In this document: positions 32,606-59,786 of the stretch, one piece after another
Layout of the letters: each line of letters opens with the position of its first letter
Position numbering within the stretch: position 1 is the stretch's first letter
NCBI GenBank assembly: GCA_964654645.1
Contig: CAZZJO010000043.1
Span: 24,650-88,649, forward strand
Direction: 5' to 3'
DNA length: 64,000 nucleotides
DNA from: an uncultured Verrucomicrobiota bacterium
GTDB lineage: Bacteria > Verrucomicrobiota > Verrucomicrobiia > Limisphaerales > CAZZJO01
Notes under the pieces: generated by a model
Told to the model about the DNA's origin: nothing
What the model saw: only the letters and a program-made list of their open reading frames with translations
The model's database searches: none
Made by a program: the position numbers and the translations under genes

Positions 32606-32836
32606 TTACTGGTCAAGCACGCGGACTCTATAAAAGCTGGTTGGCAGATTCGGCTCGATCGCTAATATGTAGGCGATAGGCTCACCGGTCCCGCTTATGA
32701 TTGGTGTTACTGGTTGCCAATTTTTGGAGGTTAGGTCGCTGGTCGTTTCAATTACAAATTTTTGGCCTGGGTATGAATTCCATTGTAAGAGGATCGAAGT
32801 AGGGTCATTTGCTGAAGCGTGAATGGTTGGTGGGGA
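32606..32836 (-). other. Shared C-terminal domain, copy 2 (..LQWNS..KFVIETTSDLTSKNWQPV..SFYRV)
   Basis: Aligned by eye with the other copies. Confidence 0.65.
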
Positions 32837-35800: not shown

Positions 35801-38800
35801 CCATGTTCGGACAAGGTCTAAGTAATTTGGAGCATTGGTGGCATTTACCGCTGCGATGAAATTGGTAAATGGAGCCCAGTCATCGGGGTTACGTGTAACT
35901 CGTGGTCTCCAGTTCCAACGGTATCGTTTGGTATCAATTTCTCCGGTTGCTTTGTTAAACCGTTCAATTGTTGCTGTGGTAATTCCGTGGCTTGTGGCGG
36001 TGTCCTCAAACTCAAACCAATCCTCGATTTTTCTAAGCTGTCCATTTTCGTCGTTTGGGAAGAACTCCTTGATTGTATCGCTATTTGGTTGTTGAACGTC
36101 GTCGTAAATTGTACCCCTGGTAAGGCCGTTTACGACAACATGGACGTGTCTGCGATAGTTGTATGGTTGACCGAGTTTTCTTGCAATCCAATTTGCTGTT
36201 AGGTCGATTTGGGTAGTCCGGTCGTTATGGAAGAAATGGCCTGTGGTCACGTCGTAAGCGTTTAGTACAAAAGCCTCGGCACCTAAGAATTTTTCGTCGG
36301 GTGGGAAGTTTACTTCGTAGTCACACGCGAAGCCCAAAGGCCCATCATAGGTTGGAGTATGGAATGGGCTTCCGCTGTACATTGTGCCGACGTTGTAAAC
36401 TACACGGCAGTTGTTGTAGACAAAGGTTGCATCGATTGGGTCATTTGCATTCTTTTCACGTTGTGTCCAGAAGTTAATATTGGAGCTGGTTAACCAAAGC
36501 CTGTAGGTACCTAGGGACCCGGGTTTGGATGTTTCGCCCCAACGCACTAAACATTCCCGGGCTGGGGCAGTCGCTGGGAACGCGTTTGTTGCGTTGCGAG
36601 TGTCGATAGCGTAGATGTAGAAAGCTGCCAGGGTATTCGAAGCGCATCCGGGTATTATGCCGGTATAAATACCGTCGTTTGCAACCTCGTCGCCACCAGT
36701 GATACCGTCGTCTGACATCCGAACTTCATAGTAAGAAGTTGAGGGATCAATTCTGTACCTCAGATAGACTCCACCTACCCCGTCAGGGTCTGATACTCTT
36801 GCTGTGACTAAGACTCGCTGACCCGGGTTGGGAAGAATAGGAAGGTGTTTGACTTCGGTTATAGTGGGGCCGGCGTTAGGTATACGTCTTGAATTTGGTA
36901 AACCAGGTGTTCCACAGTTGTTTGGTACGTTAAGTTTGTAAGAGGCTTCCATCCAATTACCTTGGAGTCGGAAAACGATGTATGGTGAGCCTCGCAACCA
37001 CCGTACGGCCGCGCGAACGGTGCCTGTATTAGGAGCGTTGGTGACTACTGTCCCAGTAAGACGCGTCCAGACTTTGTTTGGACCCGTGTCGCCTCGTGCG
37101 ACTGAAACCATGTGTAATGCTTTGCTACCATTGAGACCCACACCGTCTTGGACGTAAGAGTTTCTAAGCACGCCTCCCCAGGACCAAGAATTGGTGCCGG
37201 ATTCGAACGTGCCGTTGGCTAACAAGTTAGGCCCGTTATTGTTGCGGAACTCTAAGTTATCGACGAGTGATTCTCCGGGGCCTTGTAAGAAGAACTCGAA
37301 TCGCGTAGGTGCTCCGTAGTAAGTGCCTTGATTGATCATGCTAGGTGTTTGCCCATTTTCGAGGATTTGTGTTACGTCGATTTGAGTCCATGGAGCCTTG
37401 CTACTTTCGTCACTGTCAGCCCAATTTTGGCCGATGGAGTTATCGGCAAATGGGTCGATGAGTTCTAAGGAACTACCCCACCCATCAGCCCAAATGCTCC
37501 ATTGTCCCCCCTCATTGTAGGTGACGTCGTTTACTACGACATAGAGGAAGTTGGTGCGTGGTAACCCAGCTGCATTAGTAGTGATTTGAGGTTCAGGCAT
37601 AAGTAGTATTATTCGGTCGCTGCTATTCCGGAGTCTGCCTAAGTAGTTACCAGTGAGGTTGGTCGCATTCAATTGCGGATATTTGGCTAATAAGTTTGTG
37701 AGGTTCTTGGCTACTACGAGGTATGAATCCGGCCCGATAATCGTATTTGATGGAAAAGTGAAACGTACCCCGCCCTGGATTTGCCATCCGCTTAAATCAA
37801 CTGGTTCTTGGCCACGATTGTAGAGTTCAATGTATTCGTCGTCATCAGAACCAGAGATCGGGTTATACATGATCTCATTTATGACGATTGGCCGTATGAG
37901 TGGAGAGGAATTGGGTTGTCCAGGAGTACGTGTACTAAGCTCTCGGATACAGGGATGACCGTCTGGATAACGTCCAGAGGCGATGCCTTTTGCTTGTCCG
38001 CCAAATGCGACGGCATCGAGCACACGGGTAGCATTCGAGTTGATCAGGAAGATTCGGTCGCCAGCCGCATCAAGCCCAAACCCTAGGGTGGATCTATAAA
38101 AAACTGCAAGACTGCGAGGTGGTAAGATTGTGCCCACTGGAATTTGGAATTTTAGTAGGTTGGGGTCGTCCGTAAGCCACGCCCCGGACAAATCAATAGT
38201 TTTTGTGGTGGTGTTAAATAGTTCGATGTAGTCTTCGGCAGAGGTATCGGTGTGTGCTAAGAATTCGTTTATAACTACACCTGCTGCTGGGTCGGTTGTA
38301 TAAGGGTCGAATCTACCTGGGGAGCCTCCGATAAAGCTGCTTGGACCCCAAGCACGTGGATCGTTTTCGCCGTAGGAGGGATTGCGCAGAACAAGTGAAT
38401 GACCGCTACCATCCGGTGAAACGGGCCATGGGTAGGTGGTGTCGTATTCAATTTCTAGCAACACACCTCCCAGCTCGTTTAAAAGTCGCACGGTACCCCC
38501 ATTATTGGGTAGGGAGCCTGTGTAGGGTCCTAGGCAATCAACCCCGTAAAACTGTTTAGCGGCAGTTGGATTTTTGGCGACCACCAAGAACTGGCCCGGT
38601 GCTAATTTAGTGCCTGGAGGGAATTCGTAGCTGATACTACCGGCAAGCTGGTGGCCGGTGAGATCTTCAGTGACAAGACCAGAATTCCATATTTCAATGA
38701 ATTCTAGGTCTTCACTATCTGGCCACGACCCGGGTGGGTTATACATGATTTCGGTAATGACAATGGGAGTCCGTCTGCTGGAGGGACCAGGCGGTTCGAA

Positions 38801-43439: not shown

Positions 43440-46017
<2,578 letters not shown>

Positions 46018-46025
46018 CGTAAGCT

Positions 46026-48647
46026 GTGTCTGTTGATTCCCTATCAACAATGGAAAACCGAAACGACAACAACCAAAACGTTGGCCAACCAAAGTCTGCA
46101 TACAGTGCAGGCGAAAGAATCCAACGTGTTAACATAGCCGAGGAACTAAAGGCATGTTTCCTCGACTATGCGATGTCGGTCATCATTTCGCGTGCGCTTC
46201 CCGATGCGCGTGATGGTTTAAAGCCGTCGCAACGGCGAATCTTATATGCAATGCATGAGCTTGGGTTGGCACCGAATAAGAAACATTTAAAGTGTGCTCG
46301 TATAGTCGGGGAGACTATTGGTAAGTACCATCCCCATGGTGATCAGGCTGTGTATCCCACGCTTGTTCACATGGCCCAGCCTTGGTCCATGCGGGAGGTT
46401 TTAGTCGATGGCCAGGGCAATTTCGGGTCGATTGAGGGTGATCCACCAGCTGCAATGAGGTATACGGAGGCTCGGTTAGCGCCATTGGGAGCGTTGCTGA
46501 TGGAGGACATGGACAAGGACACAGTGGATTTTGTCCCTAACTACGATAATACCCATCTAGAACCGGTAGTTTTCCCGGCGGCTTTCCCAAATCTTCTTGT
46601 GAATGGAGCCACTGGTATTGCCGTAGGAATGGCTACTAACATTCCCCCACATAACTTGGCAGAGGTCATAGATGCCATTTGTGCACAGATAGACAACCCA
46701 GACATCACAATTGACGAGTTGATCACTTACATAAAAGGGCCGGATTTCCCCACGGGGTGTATGGTCTGTGGAGTTGAGGGGATCCGCCAATATTTTGCGA
46801 CAGGTCGTGGAACTTTAAAGATTCGTGGCCGCGTGGGAGTAGAAGAGCTTAAAGGGGGCAAACAACAAATTGTTATCACGGAGATCCCGTTTGGTGTAAA
46901 CAGAGCCCAGTTGGTTGAGAAGATCGCTGAATTGGTAAATAACAAGACTCTTCAAGATATAACTGCAATTCGAGACGAGTCGGACGAAAACACCCGCGTA
47001 GTGATTGAAATCAAGCGCGATGCGATTCCCAAGGTAATTATAAACAATCTTTACAAGCATACCCAGTTGGAAACGACATTTGCCGTAAACATGTTGGTAA
47101 TCGACCATGGGCGACCTAAAACGCTTAACATTAAGGAGCTAATCAACTGCTACATAGAACATAGGCGTGAGGTGATTTTAAGACGGACTAGGTTTGAGTT
47201 AAAAAGAGCTGAGGATAGGGCAGAGGTGTTGGAAGGATTCCTTATTGCATTGGCAAATTTGGATGAATTCATTCGCATAATTAGGACGTCGCGGACTCGG
47301 GAAGAGGCCAAAGTGAAACTAATGGCATTTGAGTTTACCCGCGCACAGGTGGAGAAATGGGGGATCCACATTCGCAAACCGGACCGCCTAGTAAATGGCC
47401 GATACGCGTTTAGTGAGGTCCAAGCTGATGCGATTTTAGACTTGAGATTGTATCAATTGACAGGAATGGAGGCGGATAAGGTCCGGAATGAATACAAGAG
47501 TTTATTGGAGCGAATTGGTGATCTGAAAGACATACTGTCGAAGGAATCACGGGTATTGGCGATAATTAAGGAAGGTCTCCAGACTGTTAAGGCAAAATAT
47601 GCCAATCCACGGCGGACGCAAATCGTGCCTGACGAAGGTGAAATGGCTATTGAAGATTTAGTTGCGAACGAGCCAGTCATAATCACTATCACTCACAATG
47701 GGCTTATCAAACGCACCAATGTCAGTGCGTATCGTGCCCAACGACGGGGTGGTAAAGGGGTTATAGGAATGAGTACCCGAACTGATTCAGATTCGGATGG
47801 GGATGCAGATTTTATTGAGCACCTTTTTACGGCTAGCACGCACGATTACATGATGTTCTTTACCAACACTGGGCGTGTGTATGTAGAGCGCGTGTTGGAA
47901 TTGCCTGACATGGGACGGGCTGCAAAGGGCCGCAGTATAGCCAACTTTCTTGAATTGAAACCGGAAGAAAAAATTGCAGCATTGATTCCCGTGCCGGTCA
48001 AATATGGGCCGAACCGCGAGGACCAAACATGGCAACAACCCTATTATGTATTTTTCGCTACCAAGAAGGGTACGGTGAAAAAGACCGCTCTTTCTGAGTT
48101 TGCTCACGTGCGTAGAGGTGGAATTATTGCCATCAACATTGAAGAAGGTGACACTCTTATTGACGTGCGTTTAACTCGTGGAAATGACGAGGTTGTTTTG
48201 ATTACTCGATATGGGATGAGTATTCGGTTCCACGAATCTGAGGTTAGGGAGATGGGGCGGCAGGCTGCAGGCGTCCGGGGTATATCACTTGAGGAGGGAG
48301 ACGAAGTAGTTGCGCTTTCAGTAGTAGTGCCGGATGCACATCTTTTAGTAGTAGGTGAGAACGGTATCGGGAAACGTACATCCTTTGAGGAGTACCGTGT
48401 CCAGGGGCGGGGTGGAAAAGGTATAATAACCATGAAAACTACTGAAAAGACGGGACCCGTAATTGGTGCTCTTACAGTTCGGAATTCTGATGAAGTAATG
48501 GTCATTACCGCAAAAGGGCAAATGGTTAGGATCCGTGTTGCCGATATCCGAGAAACAGGACGAATCGCCCAAGGTGTGAAATTGATAGAACTAGAGGCCG
48601 GTGACAAGGTTCAGGCGGTGGCACCTGTCATACAAGAAGATTACTAG
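46026..48647 (+). CDS. gyrA: DNA gyrase subunit A
   Basis: [22 protein letters not shown], the GyrA-box QRRGGKG and C-terminal pinwheel repeats. Confidence 0.99.
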
Positions 48648-48926
48648 GAAGAAAAGGTTGCTGAGAGGACCTGAGTGAATTTTCGAAACGCGATTAAGGG
48701 TGGATTCAAAAGGTTTTCTGTCACATAGGGATCTGAGGTTTGTGCCAATAAGTAAGAAAGTGTGTGTGGAATTGTGGCACTTACGGGTACCCCCAAGGCA
48801 AACCTCCCTTTATAGTTGGGCTTTTACCTTGGACGTTCAGGGTTGTTAAAAACATTGTTTTGTTGAAAGCGGTCCTTACCCTTAGGAGTATCGCTTCCCG
48901 GTGTAATGCCTGCGAAAAAATGCAAT

Positions 48927-50594
48927 TTAGGGTTTAGAGTGTATTTGGACACCTGTCATTCCAATTTGGTCCCAATGTAGGTTTTTGATGGCTGGGATAT
49001 CATCCTTCATGCTGTTGAAAATCTCCTCTGGTTGTGTTCCAAGTTTTTTCCCGTTAAGGCAAGCTAGCAGATTATTTATCCAAATATAGGCAGGGCGAGC
49101 CTCGCTGGGAGGTTCTACTGCCTGGAAGAATTTTTGGATTCGACCGCTTTTATTAATGAATGTGCCAGTTTTTTCAGCAAAGGTTGCCCCAGGGAAAACC
49201 ACGTGAGCTTGATCGGTCAGTGCTGTGCGAACGACATCATACACTACAAGTAGGTCTAGTTTACCTAAGATAGGTTGGGTCAGTTCAGGGACTTGGGTGT
49301 TTTCGCCAAACACAAAAAGTATTTTCACGCGTCCTACTTCGATATCGTGGATAATTTTTGGTATGTATAAGCCCACTTCTGAGTAACATACGCCTGTAAG
49401 GATTGCGCCTTGGGTGTTTGGGTTTCGGTCGGACGAAAGCAACAGATGATCGTGTGGGCCTTGTGCCACGAGGATGTCGGAGGTGCAATTTAAAAGAGAT
49501 TTAAGCTTAGCTACGAGCCAAAGCTCCTCTGTTGATAGTTGCCCAGAGGCTATAATTGCTGCTTGTTTGGAACTGTTTTTTCGGAGGAAATTTGCAACAT
49601 ACTCGACAGCATGCTGGGGGGATATGCTCGTTCCGTTAACGGTCGGACGGACCAACCGGGTAGGACTTTGGGTAAGCTTGTATTGAAACCTTCCGTGATC
49701 ACACATCCATGGACCATTAACTTCGTCGTTTTGACGGGGAGTAATGCGGTAGATCACATTTTGTCGAGACCAGATTGTTATATTGCAGCCTGTGCTACAG
49801 CCTGGGCATATACTGGGTGTTTCTTTGAGGAACCAAACCCGCATTCGAAACCGGAAATCCACAGACGTTAAGGCACCTACAGGGCAGATATCCACCGTGT
49901 TTAACGTGTAATTATTGTCGAATTTTTTACCGGGATAAACTGCAATCATTGAACGGGCTCCTCTGTTAATGATCCCTAGCACGTCATCGCCTACTATTTC
50001 TCGGGTAAACCGTATACATCGTGTACATAAAATGCAACGTTCAGCGTCATACATTACCCGCGGCCCAAGTTGGACGGCTTTGGGTTTGTGGAGCTTTGTT
50101 TCGTTAAATCTAGAGCTGTCTCTCCCGTAAGCTACTACGTGTTCTTGGAGGGTACATTCCCCGGCTTGGTCACAAATTGGGCAGTCTAAAGGGTGGTTCG
50201 CAAGAAGGAATTCAAGGATGCCTGTGCGCATTTGTTTAACTGCGGGCGTATCGGTATAAATTTCCATGCCTGGGGTGATGGGGGTTGCACATGCAATTAC
50301 AGGCCGTGGGGATTTTTGTACTTTGGGCGTACCGTCTGGGTTCAAGACGAGTTTGCCACTTGAATCTTTCACCGGGAAACCTACCTCGACAAGGCACATT
50401 CGACAGTTCCCGGCTATGGGGAGTTTTGGGTGGTAACAGAAATGGGGGACTTCTACCCCAGCCAAAATGCATGCTTGCATGATCGTAGTGGGGGCTGGTT
50501 GCCCTCGCCAGTCAGGCGTGAGCAGACTCACGGTAATGGGCTTCCCATTTACTTTGACGGTAGCCAGTTGGTCTTTTTCATCCATTTGGCTCAT
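48927..50594 (-). CDS. nuoG: NADH:quinone oxidoreductase subunit G
   Basis: PHFCYHP, GNCRMC, HPLDCPICDQAGEC, CILCTRC and CPGCSTGC..C Fe-S motifs. Confidence 0.95.
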   Translation of the reverse strand: MSQMDEKDQLATVKVNGKPITVSLLTPDWRGQPAPTTIMQACILAGVEVPHFCYHPKLPIAGNCRMCLVEVGFPVKDSSGKLVLNPDGTPKVQKSPRPVIACATPITPGMEIYTDTPAVKQMRTGILEFLLANHPLDCPICDQAGECTLQEHVVAYGRDSSRFNETKLHKPKAVQLGPRVMYDAERCILCTRCIRFTREIVGDDVLGIINRGARSMIAVYPGKKFDNNYTLNTVDICPVGALTSVDFRFRMRVWFLKETPSICPGCSTGCNITIWSRQNVIYRITPRQNDEVNGPWMCDHGRFQYKLTQSPTRLVRPTVNGTSISPQHAVEYVANFLRKNSSKQAAIIASGQLSTEELWLVAKLKSLLNCTSDILVAQGPHDHLLLSSDRNPNTQGAILTGVCYSEVGLYIPKIIHDIEVGRVKILFVFGENTQVPELTQPILGKLDLLVVYDVVRTALTDQAHVVFPGATFAEKTGTFINKSGRIQKFFQAVEPPSEARPAYIWINNLLACLNGKKLGTQPEEIFNSMKDDIPAIKNLHWDQIGMTGVQIHSKP

Positions 50595-51994
50595 GCAGAT
50601 ACAAGGGATTTATCAGTAAGTTTGCCGGTGTGGGTATGGTTTGAAAGGTAGTGGAGTATTTCGTGCCTGAATTTCGTGGCGATGCTTTGGACTGGTCCAG
50701 CGCATGCGTCCCCGAATGCGCAAACGGTTTTCCCACCACCAATATTATTAGCAAGCTCAATCAGTAGATCTAAGTCAGATTCTGTTGCATTCCCGGATTG
50801 AATTCGTTGTGCAATTTTTAGCATCCAAAGGGTGCCTTCCCTGCAGGGAGTGCATTGGCCACAACTTTCATGTGCAAAAAACTCAAGTACACTCACAAGG
50901 ACGTCAACCATGTTTGTGGAATCGTCGATCACAATTATCCCTCCTGAACCGCTCATGGTGCCTGCTGATGAAAGGGTGTCGAAATCATACGGGAGGTCGA
51001 GTATGTTCAGAGTATTTGTTGTAGTTTTGCCTGGCAGCTGTACTGTAAAGGTTTCATCAAGACGGAGGACTTTAGACGATATACCCCCGGGAAAAATGGC
51101 TTTGAGTTTTCTATTGGGTGGAAGACCGCCGCCAAATTCGGGGTCAAAGACCAGATCACCCAGTGTAAACTTGCCCAATTCAATTTCGTAGACGCCTGGT
51201 TTTTTGACTGCGCCACTAAGGCAAACAAGCCGTGTACCGGTATTATTGGGTGTGCCAAGCCTAGCATAATTTTCCCCACCCATTTCCACGATGTGTTTAA
51301 CTGCGCACAATGTTTCCACATTGTTGACGATGGTTGGGCAACCATACAAACCGTACACTGCGGGGAAGTATGGGGGTTTGATACGTGGGTATGGGCGTTT
51401 ACCTTCCAAAGATTCGATTAGGCCTGTTTCCTCCCCACAGATGTAGGCGCCTGCACCTCGATGAATTACCACTTCTAAGTCATACCCGGTGTTGAGAATG
51501 TTTTTTCCTAGAAACCCATGCTGGACAGCTTCTTGAATTGCGTTTTCGAGGATTTTAGCTCCCTGGGGGAATTCGCCCCGGATATAAATGAAGGCCTTAT
51601 GAACGTGGTTGGCAAAGGCAGCTATAGCAAGGCCTTCCAGAAGCTGGTGAGGATCTCTGTGAATTATTTGTCTATCTTTGAAAGTACCTGGTTCGGATTC
51701 GTCTGCGTTACAGATCAGGTAAATGGGTTTATCTTGCTTATTTTGGTGAACAAACTCCCACTTTGTTCCTGTGGGAAAACCGGCGCCACCGCGCCCACGC
51801 AAACCAGAACGTTTAATTTCGTTTCTAATTAATTCTTGGGGTGAGATAACCCGACCATTTGATTCCAAAGAAGGTTGCATTGTAAAGACACGACGTAGGG
51901 TTTGGTATCCCCCGTGCCTGAGGTAGCATTGGATGTCGGGGGTATAATCCGGGTTAGAAAAGTTCTTCGTGATAAGTTTGGTTTGTTTGCTCAT
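50591..51994 (-). CDS. nuoF: NADH:quinone oxidoreductase subunit F
   Basis: GLRGRGGAGFPTG, CNADESEPGT, AYICGEET and ESCGQCTPCREG motifs. Confidence 0.97.
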   Translation of the reverse strand: MSKQTKLITKNFSNPDYTPDIQCYLRHGGYQTLRRVFTMQPSLESNGRVISPQELIRNEIKRSGLRGRGGAGFPTGTKWEFVHQNKQDKPIYLICNADESEPGTFKDRQIIHRDPHQLLEGLAIAAFANHVHKAFIYIRGEFPQGAKILENAIQEAVQHGFLGKNILNTGYDLEVVIHRGAGAYICGEETGLIESLEGKRPYPRIKPPYFPAVYGLYGCPTIVNNVETLCAVKHIVEMGGENYARLGTPNNTGTRLVCLSGAVKKPGVYEIELGKFTLGDLVFDPEFGGGLPPNRKLKAIFPGGISSKVLRLDETFTVQLPGKTTTNTLNILDLPYDFDTLSSAGTMSGSGGIIVIDDSTNMVDVLVSVLEFFAHESCGQCTPCREGTLWMLKIAQRIQSGNATESDLDLLIELANNIGGGKTVCAFGDACAGPVQSIATKFRHEILHYLSNHTHTGKLTDKSLVSA

Positions 51995-52037
51995 TTTCTA
52001 GTAAAAACTTTGTTTGTCGCTGTCCCTGTGTGAAGTC

Positions 52038-52065
52038 TTGACAGGTACCCTGGGCCGACTAATTT
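52038..52065 (+). promoter_or_regulatory. Sigma70 promoter for tRNA-Gln
   Basis: Perfect TTGACA (52038-52043), 16 nt spacer, TAATTT (52060-52065), 11 nt upstream of the mature tRNA 5' end. Confidence 0.6.
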
Positions 52066-52076
52066 TAGGGCAGAGC

Positions 52077-52150
52077 TGCCCGATGGTGTAACGGTAGCAC
52101 AGCAGACTCTGGATCTGCGTGTCTTGGTTCGAATCCAAGTCGGGCAGCCA
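52077..52150 (+). tRNA. tRNA-Gln(CTG), CCA encoded, antisense within the nuo cluster
   Basis: TGCCCGATGGTGTAACGGTAGCACAGCAGACTCTGGATCTGCGTGTCTTGGTTCGAATCCAAGTCGGGCAGCCA forms a full cloverleaf with anticodon CTG. Confidence 0.97.
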
Positions 52151-52169
52151 AATTTGTTTGCGCCACATT

Positions 52170-52721
52170 TCATTTCGGTATTTCCGCACGATTGCAATTG
52201 CGGATTATTTCTTCCAAGGTCGATATGGTGCATCTTTCCAGGAGTTGATCACTTAACATTGCTACGGGAGCTAGGTCACATGCGGCAAGACATTCTACTT
52301 GTTCTACAGTGATGTGTCCGTCAGGGGTTGTTTGTGGGCCTGGATTGTTGGGGTCCAAATTAAGCTGGGCGCAAAGTGTGTGATAAAGATGTAAACTGCC
52401 TTTTAGCATGCATGGGAGAGACTTGCAGATTTTAATGTGGATTTGGCCGCTGGGTGTTTGTCTAAGCATGGGATAAAAGGTTACCAGTTCTAGCACGTGA
52501 ATGGGATCCACCCCCACTTTAGATGCGGTCCATTCTATTAATTGTGGGGTGAGGTACCCAAATTTTTCCTGCAAGGTATGGAGGATCATAAGGACGGCGC
52601 TTCGTGGTACCGGATACTGTTTAATGATCGAATCCACGTGAAATTCAATCTCTGGTGTGATCCGGGTATGATCACACACTTGGTGTGAATCAAATTGGGC
52701 TTTGGTCAGATCGTTTTCCAT
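52170..52721 (-). CDS. nuoE: NADH:quinone oxidoreductase subunit E
   Basis: YP..RSA.L, VTFY, CKSLPC and ECLAAC..AP 2Fe-2S ligands. Confidence 0.95.
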   Translation of the reverse strand: MENDLTKAQFDSHQVCDHTRITPEIEFHVDSIIKQYPVPRSAVLMILHTLQEKFGYLTPQLIEWTASKVGVDPIHVLELVTFYPMLRQTPSGQIHIKICKSLPCMLKGSLHLYHTLCAQLNLDPNNPGPQTTPDGHITVEQVECLAACDLAPVAMLSDQLLERCTISTLEEIIRNCNRAEIPK

Positions 52722-52732
52722 GGTTTTTACTT

Positions 52733-54001
52733 CTATCTATCGCATTCGCCCATGACAAAATCCAATGAGCCTAGGATGGCAGGTATATCGGCTAGCAGGT
52801 GGCCGGGGAGAATTACAGGTAAAATACTTAGGGTGAAAAATGAGGGAGGTCGGATCCTTAACCGGTAAGGCACACCACCACCGCGGCTTTGAATGTAGAA
52901 GCCTAATTGGCCCTTTGGGTTTTCGTGGGCAAAATAGACTTCGCTGGGTGGACAGTCAGGACCGCGTGTAACATTCATAAAATGATGGATTAACTCTTCC
53001 ATTTGCGTCATTACGTTCGATTTTGGTGGCAGGGCTACCTTGAAGTTACTGATCATAATTGGCTCATGGCTGGTATTGTCTGGTCCGCCGGGAATTTTTT
53101 GGATGCATTGGCGGATGATCGAGGCGCTCTGACGGATTTCTTCTAACCTGACCAGGTACCGGTCGTAACAATCTCCTATTGTACCTATGGGTATGTCAAA
53201 CTGGAGTTCATCGTAACATAGGTACGGTTGATCTTTCCGAAGGTCTAATGGCACGCCGCTGGCTCGCAAGTTGGGTCCAGTCAATGCATAGTCGATCGCA
53301 GTTTGTGGTGGGATCGTACCTACATTTTTAGTTCGTTTTATCCAAATGATATTCCGTGTAAGTAACCGGTCGATCTCATCTACGGTTCTAAGGAGTTCAT
53401 CGAGAAATTTGTTGAGTGTGGTGCACCACCCAGGTGGGAGATCACGAGCTACACCGCCGATTCGAGTGTAGCTGGTGGTGAATCTCGCACCTGTGAGCGC
53501 TTCGCAGAGGTTGTAGATTTTTTCGCGTTCTGTGAATTGGTATAGGAAGACAGTGACAGCGCCGCAGTCCATTGCAAATGCGCCTAGCCCAAGCAGGTGT
53601 GAAGAGATTCTAGCTAATTCACTACAGATTGTTCGTATGTAAACTGCGCGTGGCGGGATTTGATCTTCTATACCCAGCAATTTTTCAACTGCCAACACGT
53701 AAGCTACATTGTTTGCCAAGGGTGCTAAATAGTCCAATCTGTCGGTGTATGGGATGAATTGGGTATAGGTGAGATGCTCAGCAATTTTTTCAAAACCGCG
53801 GTGCAGGTATCCGATATGAGGCCGGACTGACACGATCCGTTCGCCGTCCAATTCTAATTCGATTCGAAGCACACCGTGTGTGGATGGGTGGGAGGGGCCC
53901 ATGTTCAAGTGTAATAGGTCGTTTTCTGACCAGGTGTGCGCAGGGGCCCCCCCTGGATGGTAGATCAACTGAAAAGTTTGATTTTCGTTCTGGTTAAGCA
54001 T
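52733..54001 (-). CDS. nuoD: NADH:quinone oxidoreductase subunit D
   Basis: NMGPSHPSTHGVLR, GYLHRG.EK, DRLDYLAP, GDCYDRY and GSLDFVMGECDR motifs. Confidence 0.97.
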   Translation of the reverse strand: MLNQNENQTFQLIYHPGGAPAHTWSENDLLHLNMGPSHPSTHGVLRIELELDGERIVSVRPHIGYLHRGFEKIAEHLTYTQFIPYTDRLDYLAPLANNVAYVLAVEKLLGIEDQIPPRAVYIRTICSELARISSHLLGLGAFAMDCGAVTVFLYQFTEREKIYNLCEALTGARFTTSYTRIGGVARDLPPGWCTTLNKFLDELLRTVDEIDRLLTRNIIWIKRTKNVGTIPPQTAIDYALTGPNLRASGVPLDLRKDQPYLCYDELQFDIPIGTIGDCYDRYLVRLEEIRQSASIIRQCIQKIPGGPDNTSHEPIMISNFKVALPPKSNVMTQMEELIHHFMNVTRGPDCPPSEVYFAHENPKGQLGFYIQSRGGGVPYRLRIRPPSFFTLSILPVILPGHLLADIPAILGSLDFVMGECDR

Positions 54002-54002
54002 T

Positions 54003-54572
54003 TTACTGTTGGGGATGGGCCCGTGGTTCGCTGGGATGATGGCCTGGGAGTATGTGGAATGGCCCGCCTTCCAGAGGTGCGGGCTCAGTGAAAAGACCGT
54101 TAGATCCTTGCCAGGATCTTCCAGCTAACGGGAAATCTTTTCTCATTGGATGCCATGGGTATTCATCCCACATTAGAATCCGCCGCAGATCAGGATGCCC
54201 TTGGAATCGTATACCGAACATATCGTAAACTTCACGTTCTAACCAATTACTCGCAGGCCATATATGGGAAACTGTGGGGAATGTAGGCGGATCTTCGTTT
54301 GTACTGATACGCAACCGAAGCATGCAATTTTCTTTTATGTTCCATAAATGATACACCAACATCCATCTTGGCGAAGTTTCCAGGTTATCCACCGCAGTCA
54401 GGTCTAGCAGCATCTCAAACCCCAACTGGTGTTTTAGAAAATGGCAGATCTTTAGCAGGTCTGACCCAGAATTGATTACCAAAGTAGTCTGACCACGGAA
54501 CTCGGTGTGTTCTACAATAAGCTTAGGGAAGGCCGATTTAAGTAAGTTTACCTTTTCTGCGAGTGTGGACAT
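54003..54572 (-). CDS. nuoC: NADH:quinone oxidoreductase subunit C
   Basis: DLTAVD, WLEREVYDMFGI.F.GHPDLRRILM and HPMRKDFPL. ATG 54572 preferred (ORF track 54707 overlaps nuoB). Confidence 0.95.
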   Translation of the reverse strand: MSTLAEKVNLLKSAFPKLIVEHTEFRGQTTLVINSGSDLLKICHFLKHQLGFEMLLDLTAVDNLETSPRWMLVYHLWNIKENCMLRLRISTNEDPPTFPTVSHIWPASNWLEREVYDMFGIRFQGHPDLRRILMWDEYPWHPMRKDFPLAGRSWQGSNGLFTEPAPLEGGPFHILPGHHPSEPRAHPQQ

Positions 54573-54591
54573 AGACTGTGTGTGTAAAGTT

Positions 54592-55095
54592 TTAGCTTTC
54601 AATTTGGCGCCGGAAGAGAGGTTGTGTTTGGATTTTTTGCTGGAGTTGTATAAGTGCCTGAAGGATTGCTTCTGGTCTAGGGGGGCATCCAGCAATGTAC
54701 AAGTCAACCGGTATAATGCGGTCTACGCCTTGTAATACTGAGTACGACCTGAACATTCCTCCTGTGCATGCACAGGCACCCATGGCAATGACCCATTTAG
54801 GTTCCGTCATTTGTTCGTACAAGGTTTTAATTATGGGCGCCATTTTGTAAGTAACAGTACCTGCAACAATCATCACATCTGCTTGGCGGGGGCTAAACCG
54901 CATTATTTCTGATCCAAATCTTGCGAGGTCAAAACGTGCGCCACCGCTTGCCATAAGTTCGATGGCACAGCATGAAGTCCCAGCCGGTAACGGCCAAATA
55001 GAGTATTTCCTGAACCAGTTTATCAATGCTTCCAGCCTGGTCAGCAGCACCGTACCATCGTAAATACCAGTTCCGGCTTTGCAACTTCTCTGCAT
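54592..55095 (-). CDS. nuoB: NADH:quinone oxidoreductase subunit B
   Basis: SCCAIE, RFG, SPRQAD, MGACA and GCPPRPE motifs. ATG 55095 preferred (ORF track 55140). Confidence 0.95.
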
Positions 55096-55352
55096 CTTAT
55101 TTACGCACAGCGAATATTCGGTTCGGAAAAGTAACCGCATTTTGCTACCGAGGTAAATCAGTTGGCAAGCCAGATCCTGAATAATATTAAGCTGGGTCAG
55201 TTCGAGCCTGATTTTGGCGGATTGGCAAGGGAAAGCGTTTATTTGTATGTCCGAAACCGTTCCCAGACCTTATAGGTTTGCTTTTTAACCCGATGGGTAA
55301 GGATTTGCGTAATGTGTGTTTTAACGGATTGTAAGCCTGGGCAAGACAATGG

Positions 55353-56312
55353 TTAAGTGTGAGTGTTTGATTTTTCGTAGTGAGTTTGGTGAGCCAGGCG
55401 TGTGGCAACAAATAGACTCAAACCGTATACGAGAAGGGTGCCAAGAACACCTGCTAGAATTGTTCCGAGTAACCCAAGGTTAACATCCCCGAGTTTTATA
55501 TTGTAGTCTTGCGCCGGGGCAGGGAATATAGGCTTATTAGACGCTTTTTCAATAAATCCGAAGTTGTGGGCTACGCGCTCAAGACCGTCAGGCCAACCAC
55601 ATGCCACCGGCGTGCCTATAATCACAAGGCCGATCACAGCAGCGAATCCGAACCCAATTGCATGTCGTGCTGGTGTTTGAGAAGGTTTTTCTTGTAGATT
55701 TAGCAGGTGGGGGAAAAGCCTATGCAGAGTAGCTACAAGTAAAGCTGAGATTACCCCCTCGCCAAGCCCGATTATTGCATGAATGCCCATCATGATTGGG
55801 AAAACCAGATTACTTTTAACGGTGCCTGAGATTTTTAGTTCTGCTGCGCAGGCAAAAGCGGCTGCTACAGTACTTGCCCAGCCCCCGAAGCAAACGCCTG
55901 CGTACATGCCGAGTGGATCACCTAAAATTTTTCTTAGCTTTTTGGCGAGGAAGTAACCTCCCGTGGGGGCAATGATTGCCATGTTAATGATATTTGCGCC
56001 AAGGGCGGTTACCCCACCATCCGCAAACATAAACGTTTGTGCTACCAAGACTGTGGTCATGATTAAGATTGCGGGTGGAAGCCCCAGCACGGTTGCCATT
56101 AATGTGGCACCGAGTAAGTGACCAGAGGTGCCTTTGGCTACAGGGAAGTTTATCATTTGCGCGGCAAAGACAAACGCGGCGCCCAAACCAATAAGCGGTA
56201 CAGTGCGTGGATGAACCCGAAGTTTGACAAAGGTAGGTATGACTACAGCAGCGGCTAAAATTCCCGTGCCCACAGCCGTTTTGATGTCTAAGAAACCATC
56301 GGGTATGTGCAT
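55353..56312 (-). CDS. cbiM: CbiM/NikM ECF-type Ni/Co S component fused to a PDGLE (NikN) domain
   Basis: N-terminal MHIPDGFL, AQMINFP..GTSGH, GG.TALGAN and H..IG.GE motifs, with C-terminal WPDGLERVA. Confidence 0.92.
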   Translation of the reverse strand: MHIPDGFLDIKTAVGTGILAAAVVIPTFVKLRVHPRTVPLIGLGAAFVFAAQMINFPVAKGTSGHLLGATLMATVLGLPPAILIMTTVLVAQTFMFADGGVTALGANIINMAIIAPTGGYFLAKKLRKILGDPLGMYAGVCFGGWASTVAAAFACAAELKISGTVKSNLVFPIMMGIHAIIGLGEGVISALLVATLHRLFPHLLNLQEKPSQTPARHAIGFGFAAVIGLVIIGTPVACGWPDGLERVAHNFGFIEKASNKPIFPAPAQDYNIKLGDVNLGLLGTILAGVLGTLLVYGLSLFVATRLAHQTHYEKSNTHT

Positions 56313-56322
56313 AACCAGTGGC

Positions 56323-57837
56323 TTAGTTCAAATGGTTTTGATTATTTGTGATCTCAAACTCGAGTTGTTCTTCAAAGATGTTTTTACGATCGAGGGAAAG
56401 CCAAGTTTCCAGGGAGATTTTTCTTAACGTGTGGAAATATTCGGGTGAGTTTGTGCCATATAAGGCTGCGGCTTTGTTGATTTTGTCTTGAATTTCTTTC
56501 AAAGGTCCCGGCTTGGGTTTCAGTATGAGTTTTTTCCCTTTTGCGTGGAATATAGCTATGGGTTGAGGCTTGTCAGCAGGGTGGATTGTGATCGTACCTC
56601 GGCCGAGACTTGCCCCAGTTGAGAATTGGATACCATCGTTTAGACAGCTGATAGGTGGGTTTGTGCTTGCAAGCGTTTCCACGTAAATAGAATCTCGGGG
56701 TACCCCAAGTATTTCTCGAGCTCGCAAACCCATCTTCACTCCAAGTATAGAGTACAATCCTAGGTGTCCATGCATCTCGGTGGCCATGACACCGAGTGCC
56801 CATTCCTCAACTCCATGCCGGAGAATGATCTGCTGTACATATGGGGCGACGTCGGGCTTATAGAACTCCGGCTCGGAGGGGAACCGAGATAGAAGGACCA
56901 TGTTGAGCATTCCTTCCTGTAGAATATCGAGATATGTGTTTGATGCTTTGGCGGTGTCGAGACCAGTTACCATCGTGACGTTTGAACATGTTGTGACGTG
57001 AGTTGGAAGCGCAATCGCAGGTTCATGCATAAGCAGCACTACCGCATCATCCCAGGCCCGGAAATGTCCAGATGCTACTAGGGATTTGACTCGTGGATGG
57101 GAATGGATTTGAAGAATGAGTGATGCGCCGGGCGAGTTGATAGATTTGAGAGATTCGAAGAAGTTGCTTGTTAGTACTAGGGTAAACTGCGGTAGCAAAC
57201 TCACGCACGTAATCGGAATGCCCGATGCAAATGCTTTTTTAGCTGCTTCAAGGTCTTGGGCTGTGTTCCATCCTTTTGGTTCCGTATCCGGAGGCGTGCC
57301 ATAATAGTAAACCCTCGAGATCATGTGTTTTAAATTGGGATATCGGCTTAGAAATTCGGCAAGATTTGACATTGGTCCTAAACAAACCCAGGTCACAGGT
57401 CTTGAAGAAGTGGCTATTGTATTGGAAAGAACCACGTGTGCAGGTTGAATATTAATTTGTGCTGGGAGCAGTAGTTCAGTCCAACCCAAGGTCCGCGACC
57501 ATGCCGACCATACGGGGTATGGTTGGTTAAGCTTATTGCCCTGGCCGACCGGAATGTTTGCTTTGTTCATAGCAGCAAGTATTTTGAGAACGTTCGTGAC
57601 ACCTATTTCGGAGGGGGTTGAACCGTCAGAAGTCACAATTGCCCTAACATCGCAATTTGGATCCTGCAATATGAGTATAATGGCGCGAGCATCATCCAAC
57701 GCCATGTCAGTATCAATAACAAGGGGCGCTGACATTTCATGAGCGATTACCTGAAATGAGAACACAACAGCAACTATTACCAGGTGTGAAAGCTTGTTTG
57801 CGGGTGCAATGGTAGTATTACTTAATGCTGGCACCAT
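56323..57837 (-). CDS. Exported nucleoside-hydrolase-fold protein fused to a C-terminal FmdE/FwdE domain
   Basis: Signal peptide, then IDTDMALDD, LGPMSNLA and WN..QDLEAA (IU-NH fold). C-terminal HGHLG..S..GVKMG and SCLNDGIQ.STGASLG.G.I (FmdE). ATG 57837 preferred (ORF track 57867). Confidence 0.8.
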   Translation of the reverse strand: MVPALSNTTIAPANKLSHLVIVAVVFSFQVIAHEMSAPLVIDTDMALDDARAIILILQDPNCDVRAIVTSDGSTPSEIGVTNVLKILAAMNKANIPVGQGNKLNQPYPVWSAWSRTLGWTELLLPAQINIQPAHVVLSNTIATSSRPVTWVCLGPMSNLAEFLSRYPNLKHMISRVYYYGTPPDTEPKGWNTAQDLEAAKKAFASGIPITCVSLLPQFTLVLTSNFFESLKSINSPGASLILQIHSHPRVKSLVASGHFRAWDDAVVLLMHEPAIALPTHVTTCSNVTMVTGLDTAKASNTYLDILQEGMLNMVLLSRFPSEPEFYKPDVAPYVQQIILRHGVEEWALGVMATEMHGHLGLYSILGVKMGLRAREILGVPRDSIYVETLASTNPPISCLNDGIQFSTGASLGRGTITIHPADKPQPIAIFHAKGKKLILKPKPGPLKEIQDKINKAAALYGTNSPEYFHTLRKISLETWLSLDRKNIFEEQLEFEITNNQNHLN

Positions 57838-57870
57838 AATAAATCGTGCTTTACAGAAGCTTTTCATATG

Positions 57871-57898
57871 GTATTAATGACATCAGAAAGCGTAATAC
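57871..57898. promoter_or_regulatory. Candidate NikR-type operator GTATTA-N16-TAATAC
   Basis: Perfect 6-bp inverted half-sites at 57871-57876 and 57893-57898 with a 16-nt spacer, upstream of a nikMN-type gene. The E. coli NikR operator is GTATGA-N16-TCATAC. Confidence 0.6.
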
Positions 57899-57899
57899 T

Positions 57900-59048
57900 A
57901 TGAAGCGACTCAGGTCAAGTTCAGTCAGATTGGCGTGTTTTGCGTTTGCAAGCCTTGTTGCTGTAAGTACGCCTGCTACAACAAATTGTCAAATAAGGTT
58001 TGTGCGGCACTGGGATTTGCAGGCTGTGACTGAAACCGGCACCAGTGCGTGGGCCGGATCATACCCGTTTACGATAATTGGTGTTCTTTTGACTGATCCA
58101 GATGAGATGTTGGATTCCACTCCGAACTTTCAGCCGGCAAGCTCGAATAACATGGGCGGTCAATGGCAGATGGTTATCCAAGCGTTGCCGCCAGATCGTG
58201 GCGGCACGTTTTTGTGGATGGGCCAAAATTACGCAATTCGGCGACCACCCTATGACGATGCCTTCAGCTATACTGATGAAGAATGGGTAGCTGAGATAAA
58301 TAGATTGAATCATGATCCATATACTGGGCATGCGTTCCGGAAAGGCGATTTAGTCGCTGTTACAGCAAACGCGAGCTTGTTTTACGGTGGCAAACGCAAC
58401 GTGAATGAGGCGCACCGGAAGGAACCAGAGTATGATTTTAACATTGTTTTACTTGCAACGAATTACGGGCTTCCCGAGCCGGAGGTAATTACATTGGCCT
58501 CTTTGGTTAGGCCTGACGACGGAAATCCGGCCACTAGTGAGGATATATTTGACCCCACGCGAATGAGTGGAGGGGAGTATTGGCAAGGGATGCGAGTCCG
58601 GATAAATGGATTAAAGTTAGTCACCACGAATGGTTGGGATCCAACTCTTTCTTGGAGTCAGCGGGTGTGTATTGTTACGGATGGTGAGAATAGATTTTTT
58701 AGAGTTCGGCATCCTAGGTATTCGTTGGGACCCGCTCCAACCAACTGGTTCGATGCCATAGGGATTCTGAATCAAGAGAGTGGATCAGGTATCCAGGGAA
58801 CAAATGGATACGAGTTGTTTATCCAAGAAGTATTGCCAGCGGAGGAACCGCGGCTCAAAGTAGAACAGGCTGTTGTGGTTAGTTGGCCCTCCTCATTGAG
58901 TAATTACAGATTGCTATCGGCAGAATCGCCCGTGTCCACCAATTGGGTTCCAGTGACTAACAAACCCGTTCTCATAGGAGATACCTTAAATGTGCTTTGC
59001 ACTCTAAATAATACACAACGGTTTTTCCGTCTTGAACGGATACGGTAG
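57900..59048 (+). CDS. Exported hypothetical protein with a probable tandem OB-fold-like region and a C-terminal RFFR domain
   Basis: Signal peptide after ATG 57900 (ORF track 57846). PEPEVITLASL..GEYWQGMRVRINGL and FDAIGIL resemble OB-fold modules of extracellular nucleases (by eye). Confidence 0.6.
   Translation: MKRLRSSSVRLACFAFASLVAVSTPATTNCQIRFVRHWDLQAVTETGTSAWAGSYPFTIIGVLLTDPDEMLDSTPNFQPASSNNMGGQWQMVIQALPPDRGGTFLWMGQNYAIRRPPYDDAFSYTDEEWVAEINRLNHDPYTGHAFRKGDLVAVTANASLFYGGKRNVNEAHRKEPEYDFNIVLLATNYGLPEPEVITLASLVRPDDGNPATSEDIFDPTRMSGGEYWQGMRVRINGLKLVTTNGWDPTLSWSQRVCIVTDGENRFFRVRHPRYSLGPAPTNWFDAIGILNQESGSGIQGTNGYELFIQEVLPAEEPRLKVEQAVVVSWPSSLSNYRLLSAESPVSTNWVPVTNKPVLIGDTLNVLCTLNNTQRFFRLERIR
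58842..59048 (+). other. Shared C-terminal domain, copy 3 (..VVSWPS..NYRLLSAES..TNWVPV..RFFRL)
   Basis: Aligned by eye with the other copies. Confidence 0.65.
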
Positions 59049-59135
59049 AGACGCCGCATCGATAGCATAGTGCACAGGGTCGTAAAAGAGCCGAGGAGTC
59101 AGAAAAATGGGGGGCGGGTAGGAAGCACTGTTTTG

Positions 59136-59786
59136 ATGATGCTCGCCCCCCGTATCTTTAGTTGGGGGTTTACTCTGGTGGAGTTATTGGTGGTAATTGG
59201 GGTTATTGGCTTGCTGGCAGGGTTGATGCTACCTGTAATCCGACACGTAGCTGAAAAAAGTAAGGTAGTGGCCGTCCATTCGGATTTGTATCAGATAGGC
59301 TTAGCCTTACACGTGTATGCGGATGACCATGGTGGACGTGTTCCTCCAGTGCGTGTCAATTGCAACAATGATTTGCGGGATCATTGGTGTCAACTACCGC
59401 CCGAGTTAGCTGCAGGCAACTATCTCCCTACAGGCATAGAAGCCGGTCGTGAAGTGGCATTTTTTGATCGCTTTAACCCCGGTTTTACATACAAATACGC
59501 AGCCCCTGGGCCAATGCTGCTTAACAACGAGCCAATAGGCAACTACGCTTTATGGATACCCACCAGTTTCCCTAACTTGGAAAGCACAAATGGACGGTAC
59601 TTTGAGACACCGTCAGATAGCCCAGTAAAATGGGTGATTTGGAGTGTCGGTCCACGCCCCAACAGTCCAAAGAGTACTAGCAAATATGCCCCTATGAGTT
59701 CGACCACGTGGTATAAACGTGTGGGTGACTCAGGCGTGATTATCCGGTATGCCACACGGGATGGAATCCAGTTTAAGAGTCCTTAG
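59136..59786 (+). CDS. Prepilin-type N-methylation domain protein (GspG-like pseudopilin)
   Basis: G-FTLVELLVVIGVIGLLAGLMLP cleavage/methylation motif and C-terminal IWSVGP. ATG 59136 preferred (ORF track 59070). Confidence 0.85.
   Translation: MMLAPRIFSWGFTLVELLVVIGVIGLLAGLMLPVIRHVAEKSKVVAVHSDLYQIGLALHVYADDHGGRVPPVRVNCNNDLRDHWCQLPPELAAGNYLPTGIEAGREVAFFDRFNPGFTYKYAAPGPMLLNNEPIGNYALWIPTSFPNLESTNGRYFETPSDSPVKWVIWSVGPRPNSPKSTSKYAPMSSTTWYKRVGDSGVIIRYATRDGIQFKSP

Follow-up and report, generated by a model that had tools for sequence, protein, structure and literature searches.

Why would a protein with a nucleoside-hydrolase fold carry an export signal and a second domain of a metal-binding type, and why would it be encoded beside a nickel importer? 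This question was raised by a gene on the minus strand of the window, a stretch of 64,000 nucleotides (nt) from an uncultured Verrucomicrobiota bacterium (contig CAZZJO010000043.1, positions 24,650 to 88,649). As judged from its sequence, the product, called the fusion protein here, is an exported two-domain protein in which a nucleoside-hydrolase fold is joined to an FmdE metal-binding fold. We give about an even chance to the reading that it is a periplasmic Ni(II) capture and relay protein in metal uptake. How nickel gets from the TonB-dependent receptors of the outer membrane to the importers of the inner membrane is poorly understood, and the accessory roles of NikK and NikL are only now being worked out. 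To our knowledge, the Nik/Cbi importers of the energy-coupling factor type have no classical soluble binding protein.

Two folds, an export signal and candidate metal ligands

The initial annotation had placed the gene at 56323-57837. The lower end was retained, but the true open reading frame (ORF) was found on the minus strand with its upper end at 57867; read on the plus strand, 56323-57837 was full of stops. Met11 at 57837 is an alternative start, and translation may begin at Met1 or Met11. The features of the gene and its product are listed below, with a slash in this and later motifs marking the predicted cleavage point.

56323..57867, minus strand: ORF of the fusion gene (P0001), 514 amino acids (aa) including the signal peptide
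57742..57867, minus strand: predicted signal peptide, residues 1-42, with the hydrophobic core LVIVAVVFSFQVI followed by V-I-A and the end FQVIA/HE
57739..57741, minus strand: His43, the predicted first mature residue, invariant in the A1 and A2 alignments and usually followed by Glu or Asp
56905..57741, minus strand: nucleoside-hydrolase-fold domain, residues 43-321 (Pfam, Foldseek and VIA)
57691..57714, minus strand: DTDMALDD, residues 52-59, the Ca2+-binding and catalytic Asp cluster, aligned to DCDPGHDD of RihA
57046..57054, minus strand: W272-D273-D274, taken as the place of the RihA-type H-D-P, mapped by position only
56371..56775, minus strand: FmdE-fold domain, residues 365-499 by Pfam, with a structural match spanning residues 329-507
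56764..56772, minus strand: His366-Gly-His368, aligned to the metal ligands His16 and His18 of 2gvi and followed by L-G, not x-C
56644..56646, minus strand: Cys408 in SCLND, the sole retained Cys, invariant and aligned to the ligand Cys61 of 2gvi

The signal peptide and the motifs DTDMALDD, WDD, HGH and SCLND described in the initial annotation, together with the loss of the Cys of HGHxC, were all present at these verified coordinates.

Both folds were recovered from the sequence and from the predicted structure. The Pfam model PF01156 (IU_nuc_hydro) matched residues 49-284 with an E value of 1.6e-31, and PF02663 (FmdE) matched residues 365-499 with an E value of 3.7e-16; in phmmer the FmdE domain also matched 2gvi (E 1.9e-5). 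Structure prediction, which had been proposed as a check, gave a confident AF2 model with both folds. The predicted local distance difference test (pLDDT) score was 92.5 for the mature chain (76 aligned sequences) and 85.9 for the full chain with its leader. Compared in VIA, the mature model matched nucleoside hydrolases with Z scores of 31.3 (4kpo) and 29.8 (1hoz, an inosine-adenosine-guanosine nucleoside hydrolase, IAG-NH) and a root-mean-square deviation of 2.7 Å across about 265 residues. The Z scores to the three solved FmdE proteins were 14.8 (2gvi), 13.5 (2glz) and 11.7 (3d00), and Foldseek gave a TM score of 0.78 between the hydrolase-fold domain and RihA. All 120 listed database homologs carried both domains. 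These homologs are named “nucleoside hydrolase” or “pyrimidine-specific ribonucleoside hydrolase” in the databases, and the names and the strong fold match would suit an ordinary enzyme that salvages periplasmic nucleosides, with the FmdE domain as an incidental appendage. Such a role is scarcely credible for the fusion protein, which scored only 85 and 82 bits against the NCBIfam models of RihC and RihA (cut-offs 382 and 433), has lost the substrate-binding residues described below, and belongs to a family in which the fusion itself, the N-terminal His and the metal-uptake context are conserved.

The most telling feature, which was missed in the initial annotation, was an invariant His at the predicted mature N-terminus. 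A His was located 4-12 residues (mostly 9) ahead of DxDxxxDD in 117 of the 120 homologs, and a strongly hydrophobic 12-residue window ended right before it in all 113 homologs with enough N-terminal sequence. The preceding residue was mostly Ala, Gly or Ser, giving AXA/H-type sites such as “SA/HE”, “RA/HD” and “SG/HT”. Because the conserved His directly follows an AXA-type cleavage site, the mature fusion protein is expected to have His as its first residue, in most cases with Glu or Asp next to it. The export claimed initially was borne out by the signal peptides predicted in the fusion protein and its homologs. Secreted proteins that start with His are recognised as a class of metal-binding proteins.

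In the FmdE domain, His366, His368 and Cys408 were all invariant in the family alignments, and an invariant Gly370 stood in place of the fourth ligand Cys (Cys19 in 2glz, Cys20 in 2gvi). The metal site of 2glz is solvent-exposed, consists of His15, His17, Cys19 and Cys55, and had a Zn:Ni ratio of 2.6:1, and the equivalent site of 2gvi is formed by His16, His18, Cys20 and Cys61; in 3d00, which is without two of the ligands, no metal was bound at that site (PMC2954224). The majority of FmdE genes are found next to genes for metal transporters (Axelrod et al. 2010, PMC2954224).

The same FmdE variant (HxHLG ... SCLNDG ... TGA) was also carried by stand-alone exported proteins. Those of about 215 aa (P0131-P0133) had His-rich mature N-termini (LHEARH, HLHQARH and HPHMHQSKDRH), and P0134 started with an HNHNHN repeat. 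In P0126, “A/HD” and a vestigial first strand were kept and the hydrolase domain was missing; this form came from a single small cluster and calls for caution. Because the stand-alone variants keep His at the mature N-terminus, these split forms appear to tie the N-terminal His functionally to the FmdE site and not to the hydrolase pocket. The start of strand 1, presumably at the end of the sheet opposite the Asp cluster, would fit this tie.

In the hydrolase-fold domain, D52, D54, D58, D59, Asn201 and Asp273 were invariant in the family alignments, and Trp272 was kept in at least 90% of homologs. The motif WDD is within the Pfam match, whose last residue is 284, and searches with the C-terminal half of the domain stopped short of it, giving no residue-level alignment of WDD to the hydrolase HDP. 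The initial annotation had treated WDD as an oddity, which it is not in itself, since purine-specific IAG-type hydrolases (group II) have Trp at the leaving-group position, where His is found in group I. The stretch “GN...AEFN” of RihA/YeiK aligned to “PP...KGWN”, in which the Asn of GN is Pro or deleted and the Glu of AEFN is Gly or Pro. In C. fasciculata numbering, these lost positions correspond to Asn160 and Glu166, which hold the ribose 5'-OH. The His82 loop of true hydrolases was replaced as well, and the family showed conserved residues of its own, with Arg61 and Asp81 invariant and His255 and His268 near-invariant. Because the residues holding the ribose 5'-OH are lost, the domain would most likely be a scaffold or binding pocket and not a classical nucleosidase. 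The loss of these ligands and of His82 fits the option, raised initially, of a hydrolase fold repurposed for binding.

Gene neighbourhoods and candidate NikR operators

Gene contexts were compared in 80 genome loci, taken from at least 251, and in the window by clustering of ORFs with Pfam and NCBIfam checks. The partners of the fusion gene were distributed as follows.

TonB-dependent receptor within 3 kb: 47 of 81 loci
TonB-dependent receptor directly upstream on the same strand, the commonest partner: 36 of 81 loci
CbiM within 6 kb: 12 of 81 loci, 7 of them directly downstream, all in Verrucomicrobiota
CbiQ within 6 kb: 11 of 81 loci
DUF4198 within 6 kb: 10 of 81 loci
NikL-like gene within 6 kb: 10 of 81 loci
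NikR gene within 6 kb: 6 of 81 loci
Any Ni/Co-uptake gene (TonB receptor, CbiM/Q, DUF4198, NikL-like or NikR) within 6 kb: 60 of 81 loci

The link to metal transport suggested in the initial annotation was therefore a conserved one, and several of the 21 loci without such neighbours were truncated contigs. The choice of NikMN as the partner did not hold in general: it adjoined the fusion gene directly in only about 7 loci, those of Verrucomicrobiota, and was ruled out as a universal partner.

The simplest layout, a receptor followed by the fusion gene, was found in many Desulfobacterota, Acidobacteriota and Bacteroidota. In Desulfobacterales the order was receptor, secreted tetrapyrrole-methylase-like protein, DUF4198, fusion gene, APC permease and NikL-like gene; in Ignavibacteriales and Zixibacteria it was NikR, CbiM, NikL-like gene, CbiQ, ATP-binding cassette (ABC) ATPase and fusion gene. 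Locus L051 showed an operator, receptor, fusion gene, CbiM, CbiQ and ABC ATPase in succession. DUF4198 directly adjoined the fusion gene in about 10 Desulfobacterota loci, and the two proteins may act together. IsDUF4198 is secreted, binds Ni2+ via its N-terminal His with a Kd of 18 nM, and is encoded beside TonB receptors and NikR (PMC12537917), and in Neisseria another DUF4198 member, Zcp, captures zinc in the periplasm (PMC12663993).

Some partners in these loci had features of their own. NikL-like small proteins (NF058648, a weak match; L015:10891-11418 and relatives, c22) had a signal peptide ending “...YA/HG” and thus a predicted N-terminal His. The Desulfobacterales loci L010, L015, L022, L025 and others (e.g. 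L022:2312-3223) encoded a tetrapyrrole-methylase-fold protein with a clear signal peptide, located between the TonB receptor and DUF4198 and nearest to CobM/CbiF and CobA, below the cut-offs; the presence of a SAM-dependent corrin/porphyrin methylase fold in the periplasm hints that tetrapyrroles are bound there. In L039, a PP-loop ATPase with an NFACT-R_2 domain (L039:11575-12636) directly followed the fusion gene, and after it came a molybdate/tungstate-type ABC system (SBP_bac_11, permease, and ATPase with a TOBE domain).

Around the fusion gene of the window, the following features were found.

55353..56312, minus strand: fused NikMN-type S component (CbiM+PDGLE, N-terminus MHIPDG), 10 nt downstream of the fusion gene
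57871..57898, no strand assigned: candidate NikR operator GTATTAA-N14-GTAATAC, between the fusion gene and the divergent U404
57900..59048, plus strand: U404, a divergent secreted protein of 382-400 aa with no Pfam or NCBIfam match
59070..59786, plus strand: pseudopilin-like protein with an N_methyl motif, downstream of U404

The fusion gene and the NikMN gene are probably co-transcribed, because they are only 10 nt apart on the same strand. U404 neighboured the fusion gene in 11 of the 81 loci, and it did so too in the two relatives of the same order that carry the fusion (62% and 50% identity). In the ESM Atlas it fell into a Verrucomicrobiota cluster of its own with about 326 members, and a weak lead to DUF5689 was also seen. 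In these organisms, it may take the place of the TonB-dependent receptor. On the other side, inspection by eye of 43477-55140 showed gyrB- and gyrA-like ORFs and then a minus-strand nuoB-nuoG-like NADH dehydrogenase cluster, directly downstream of NikMN after a gap of 212 nt, all ordinary housekeeping genes; the nuoB-like ORF matched Oxidored_q6 in Pfam. Farther away, a secreted giant protein of 2705 aa with repeated domains was encoded at 32606-40723 on the minus strand.

The promoter region of the fusion gene appears to carry a NikR-type operator at 57871-57898, to which NikR is predicted to bind, and a weaker second copy was present at 57815-57842. The first shares its architecture with the published NikR signals, GTGTTAC-[N13/14]-GTAACAC in delta-proteobacteria and GTATGAT-[N13/14]-ATCATAC in enterobacteria (PMC545781). 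The 2.63 Mb genome contained three sites with at most one mismatch to GTATTAC-N14-GTAATAC, whereas three shuffles gave 0, 1 and 0, and one of the three was the site in the fusion-gene promoter region. Another of the three, in the region L089:3891-5315 (contig C47:29890-31314), was an exact copy and overlapped a -10 region, between a TTGACA box and AGGAGG-ATG. The operon behind it encodes a secreted TrmO_N-like protein with the signal peptide end “AVA/HPP” and a predicted N-terminal His, followed by a DUF1559/N_methyl pseudopilin-like gene, in parallel with the pair of U404 and pseudopilin genes in the window. From its sequence, this operon is a second candidate for control by NikR. The TrmO_N-like protein is in itself an odd, exported use of a tRNA-methyltransferase fold. 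The third site, inside purL (contig C9), was rejected as probably due to chance, and no site with at most three mismatches was found near nikR, the CbiQ/ABC ATPase pair or the hydrogenase of this genome. Across the family, sites with at most two mismatches were found in 7 of 74 operon-upstream regions as compared with 4 of 405 random windows. More sites were located before the receptor-fusion operons of L051 and L039, before the fusion gene in L060 and L013, and before NikR and U404 in L005. The site in L063 was a direct and not an inverted repeat and was not counted as strong, and the intergenic region of L092 contained a single half-site only.

The gene content of the genome, which is 95% complete, also pointed to nickel. 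It carried nikR on contig C63 and encoded the large subunit of a [NiFe]-hydrogenase, whereas neither CbiC nor urease was found at this completeness and there was no sign of de novo B12 synthesis. The NikMN-type gene was the only CbiM found. The sole CbiQ and ABC ATPase (contig C10:84709-88251, L081) were unlinked to it, beside ffh (SRP54) and a superoxide dismutase gene; the CbiQ match had one TAA inside the whole-genome match, yet a 204 aa ORF covered the domain. Nickel is the best-supported metal in this genome.

A possible nickel relay and the alternatives

In the reading we prefer, the fusion protein would be exported by Sec and cut after Ala42, and the mature chain would begin at His43. 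It would capture Ni(II) past the outer membrane, which the metal would cross in most lineages through the TonB-dependent receptor whose gene directly precedes the fusion gene; here, U404 and the pseudopilin-like gene, both divergent, may have a part in the passage. The metal would be held by the three retained FmdE ligands His366, His368 and Cys408. The absent fourth ligand would leave an open coordination position suited to ligand exchange, and the flexible His43, with its amine and imidazole and together with Glu45, could act as the fourth ligand or as a capture arm. The hydrolase fold, with its Asp-lined Ca2+ site kept, would most likely be a Ca2+-stabilised scaffold or a pocket for a diol-bearing carrier. 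From here the metal would be handed to the inner-membrane importer, in this organism NikMN with the unlinked CbiQ and ABC ATPase, and NikR would repress expression when nickel is plentiful.

The retained Asp cluster also allows a different role for the hydrolase domain, as an active enzyme that cleaves an imported carrier in the periplasm. The carrier would be a nickelophore that is ribosylated or bears a diol, or else a cofactor that contains a nucleotide; the N-terminal His and the FmdE site would catch the metal set free and pass it on to the importer. TonB receptors usually import chelates and NikM binds the bare ion, so a release step would be needed, and in L051 the fusion gene is located between the receptor and CbiM. 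The Ca2+ ligands Asp54, Asp59 and Asp273, as well as Asp58 and Asn201, were invariant in at least eight phyla; Trp272 stands, by its position, where IAG hydrolases, represented by 1hoz among the structural matches, have their leaving-group Trp; and the loss of the residues that hold the ribose 5'-OH would fit a 5'-substituted substrate. Nevertheless, we consider such an enzyme unlikely. The fusion protein lacks the His82 loop and counterparts of Asn160 and Glu166, stand-alone FmdE versions without the hydrolase domain exist, no recurring ligand-synthesis gene was present in the loci, and we know of no ribosylated nickelophore. It is similarly doubtful that, in its most explicit form, a remodelled Ca2+-dependent site cleaves a TonB-imported Ni/Co carrier and the ion, trapped by the N-terminal His and the open FmdE site with its three ligands, is passed to NikMN; the carrier could be a ribosylated or diol-bearing metallophore, or a metal-tetrapyrrole or nucleotide cofactor. 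If true, a single polypeptide would couple the destruction of the carrier to the relay of its metal. Nothing examined supported the idea of the initial annotation that metal or cofactor is freed by hydrolysis from a nucleoside-containing ligand.

Several observations weigh against the nickel relay that we prefer. Neither AF2 model, of the full chain or of the mature one, placed the four residues at the mature N-terminus with confidence. The invariance of the Ca2+ ligands, Asp58 and Asn201 across phyla at about 35% identity is also expected of a working active site. A clear NikR-like site was present in only about 10 of the 81 loci, and no TonB-dependent receptor was found among the ORFs examined around the fusion gene in the window. 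Fusion relatives were found in 251 species (a scan of one genome per species) of at least eight phyla, among them Verrucomicrobiota, Desulfobacterota, Acidobacteriota/Aminicenantes, Zixibacteria, Ignavibacteriales, Gemmatimonadota, Krumholzibacteriia/Eisenbacteria and Bacteroidota (Alistipes, Tannerella and Parabacteroides). However, none of 200 evenly drawn genomes of the phylum Verrucomicrobiota had the fusion, and it was present in 2 of 30 genomes of the same order. The family is conserved but sparse, and it cannot be a general requirement of nickel uptake because it is missing from all 200 phylum genomes. Finally, Znu-type ABC-3 permeases were found in four loci, and one locus, L064 of Alistipes muris, had a cobalamin riboswitch; both bear on the identity of the metal.

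The ABC-3 permeases would suit a periplasmic protein that, like Zcp of Neisseria, buffers or captures zinc or metals more generally and has no specificity for nickel. A His/His/Cys site suits zinc, zinc exceeded nickel in the FmdE site of 2glz (PMC2954224), and DUF4198 members bind nickel in one species and zinc in another (PMC12537917, PMC12663993). This role is improbable, in view of the NikR genes or NikR-like sites in at least 14 loci and of direct neighbours that are of the CbiM/NikM type and not ZnuA. No Zur/Fur link was seen in the loci, in which Zur/Fur boxes were not searched for, and the second operator of the genome precedes another secreted protein with a predicted N-terminal His.

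In L064 (4609-11371), the order was cobalamin riboswitch, DUF4465, a 297 aa protein, TonB-dependent receptor and fusion gene. DUF4465 is the domain of the B12-binding protein BtuH. Such a locus would be expected if the fusion protein served to acquire cobalt or corrinoids, as a periplasmic protein that works with BtuB-like receptors and binds cobamides, or remodels them, via the nucleotide loop. The receptors of Bacteroidota matched the TonB-B12 model best, although well below the cut-off, and the secreted CobM/CbiF-like methylase of the Desulfobacterales operons points in the same direction. Against this, the riboswitch was found in only 1 of the 33 loci scanned, which ruled it out as a general regulator, the genome of the window combines NikR and NikMN without a detected CbiC, and the ribose-binding residues are lost. 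A role as a cobalt or corrinoid factor is quite improbable. The metal or cargo may nonetheless differ between lineages: a few of them point to cobalt or corrinoid (L064) or perhaps to zinc or manganese (the four ABC-3 loci), and in a minority the metal may be cobalt or a corrinoid instead of nickel.

As a nickel relay, the fusion family would be a promising candidate for the periplasmic link that is missing between the nickel transporters of the outer and of the inner membrane in at least eight phyla, and it has cultivable carriers in Desulforhabdus amnigena, strain NaphS2, Alistipes muris and Limisphaera. If this is true, the long-enigmatic FmdE fold would gain a defined role in periplasmic metal relay, and the emerging class of secreted N-terminal-His metalloproteins would gain a large new member. 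The nucleoside-hydrolase fold would have been recruited outside nucleoside metabolism, and the database annotation “nucleoside hydrolase” would be corrected for all members.

Comparison with known systems

In the literature, no paper joining FmdE with “nucleoside hydrolase” or “TonB-dependent” was found, and the fusion was unmentioned in the signal-strapping paper on N-terminal-His DUF4198 and in the cable-bacteria nickel paper. Periplasmic Ni/Co accessories and secreted N-terminal-His metal binders are known; the two-domain family in such a role would be new.

The closest relatives of the first domain are the inosine-uridine (IU) nucleoside hydrolases, including RihA/B/C, C. fasciculata IU-NH and T. 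vivax IAG-NH. They have the same complete fold and the DxDxxxDD motif, the Asn of their “EFN” aligns with Asn201, and Asp273 is taken as the equivalent of their C-terminal Ca2+ ligand; in IAG-NH a Trp precedes that Asp, and Trp272 would be its counterpart by position. These enzymes are cytoplasmic and have Asn160, Glu166 and His82, whereas the fusion protein is predicted to be exported, is without these residues, scores below the equivalog cut-offs, carries the FmdE domain, and has gained His43, Arg61, Asp81, His255 and His268. The type III effector XopQ/HopQ1 (4p5f; Z 25.6 in VIA) likewise has this fold and is not named a nucleosidase; it was solved with bound ADP-ribose. Unlike the fusion protein, it is a cytosolic effector of plant pathogens with no link to metal uptake.

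The second domain shares with the FmdE/FwdE proteins (PF02663; 2glz, 2gvi and 3d00) the alpha+beta core, the His-x-His...Cys part of the site and the neighbourhood of metal transporters. It differs from them in being part of an exported protein, in having Gly in place of the fourth Cys and Ala in place of the TGC Cys, in the absence of a zinc-ribbon tail, and in its position behind a hydrolase fold.

DUF4198 proteins (NikK/COG5266 type) resemble the fusion protein in being secreted, in the predicted N-terminal His and in their location beside TonB-dependent receptors, NikR and Nik/Cbi genes. Their fold is unrelated, and unlike them the fusion protein offers a further candidate metal site, in FmdE, as well as the large domain with the hydrolase fold. 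Amino-terminal nickel sites are also formed by Met1-His2 of NikM/CbiM and by the “MHE” motif of HypA. In these sites, an N-terminal amine, an adjacent His and an acidic residue make up a candidate Ni(II) site, like the H-E/D start of the fusion protein, in which the His itself would become residue 1 through the predicted cleavage of the signal peptide.

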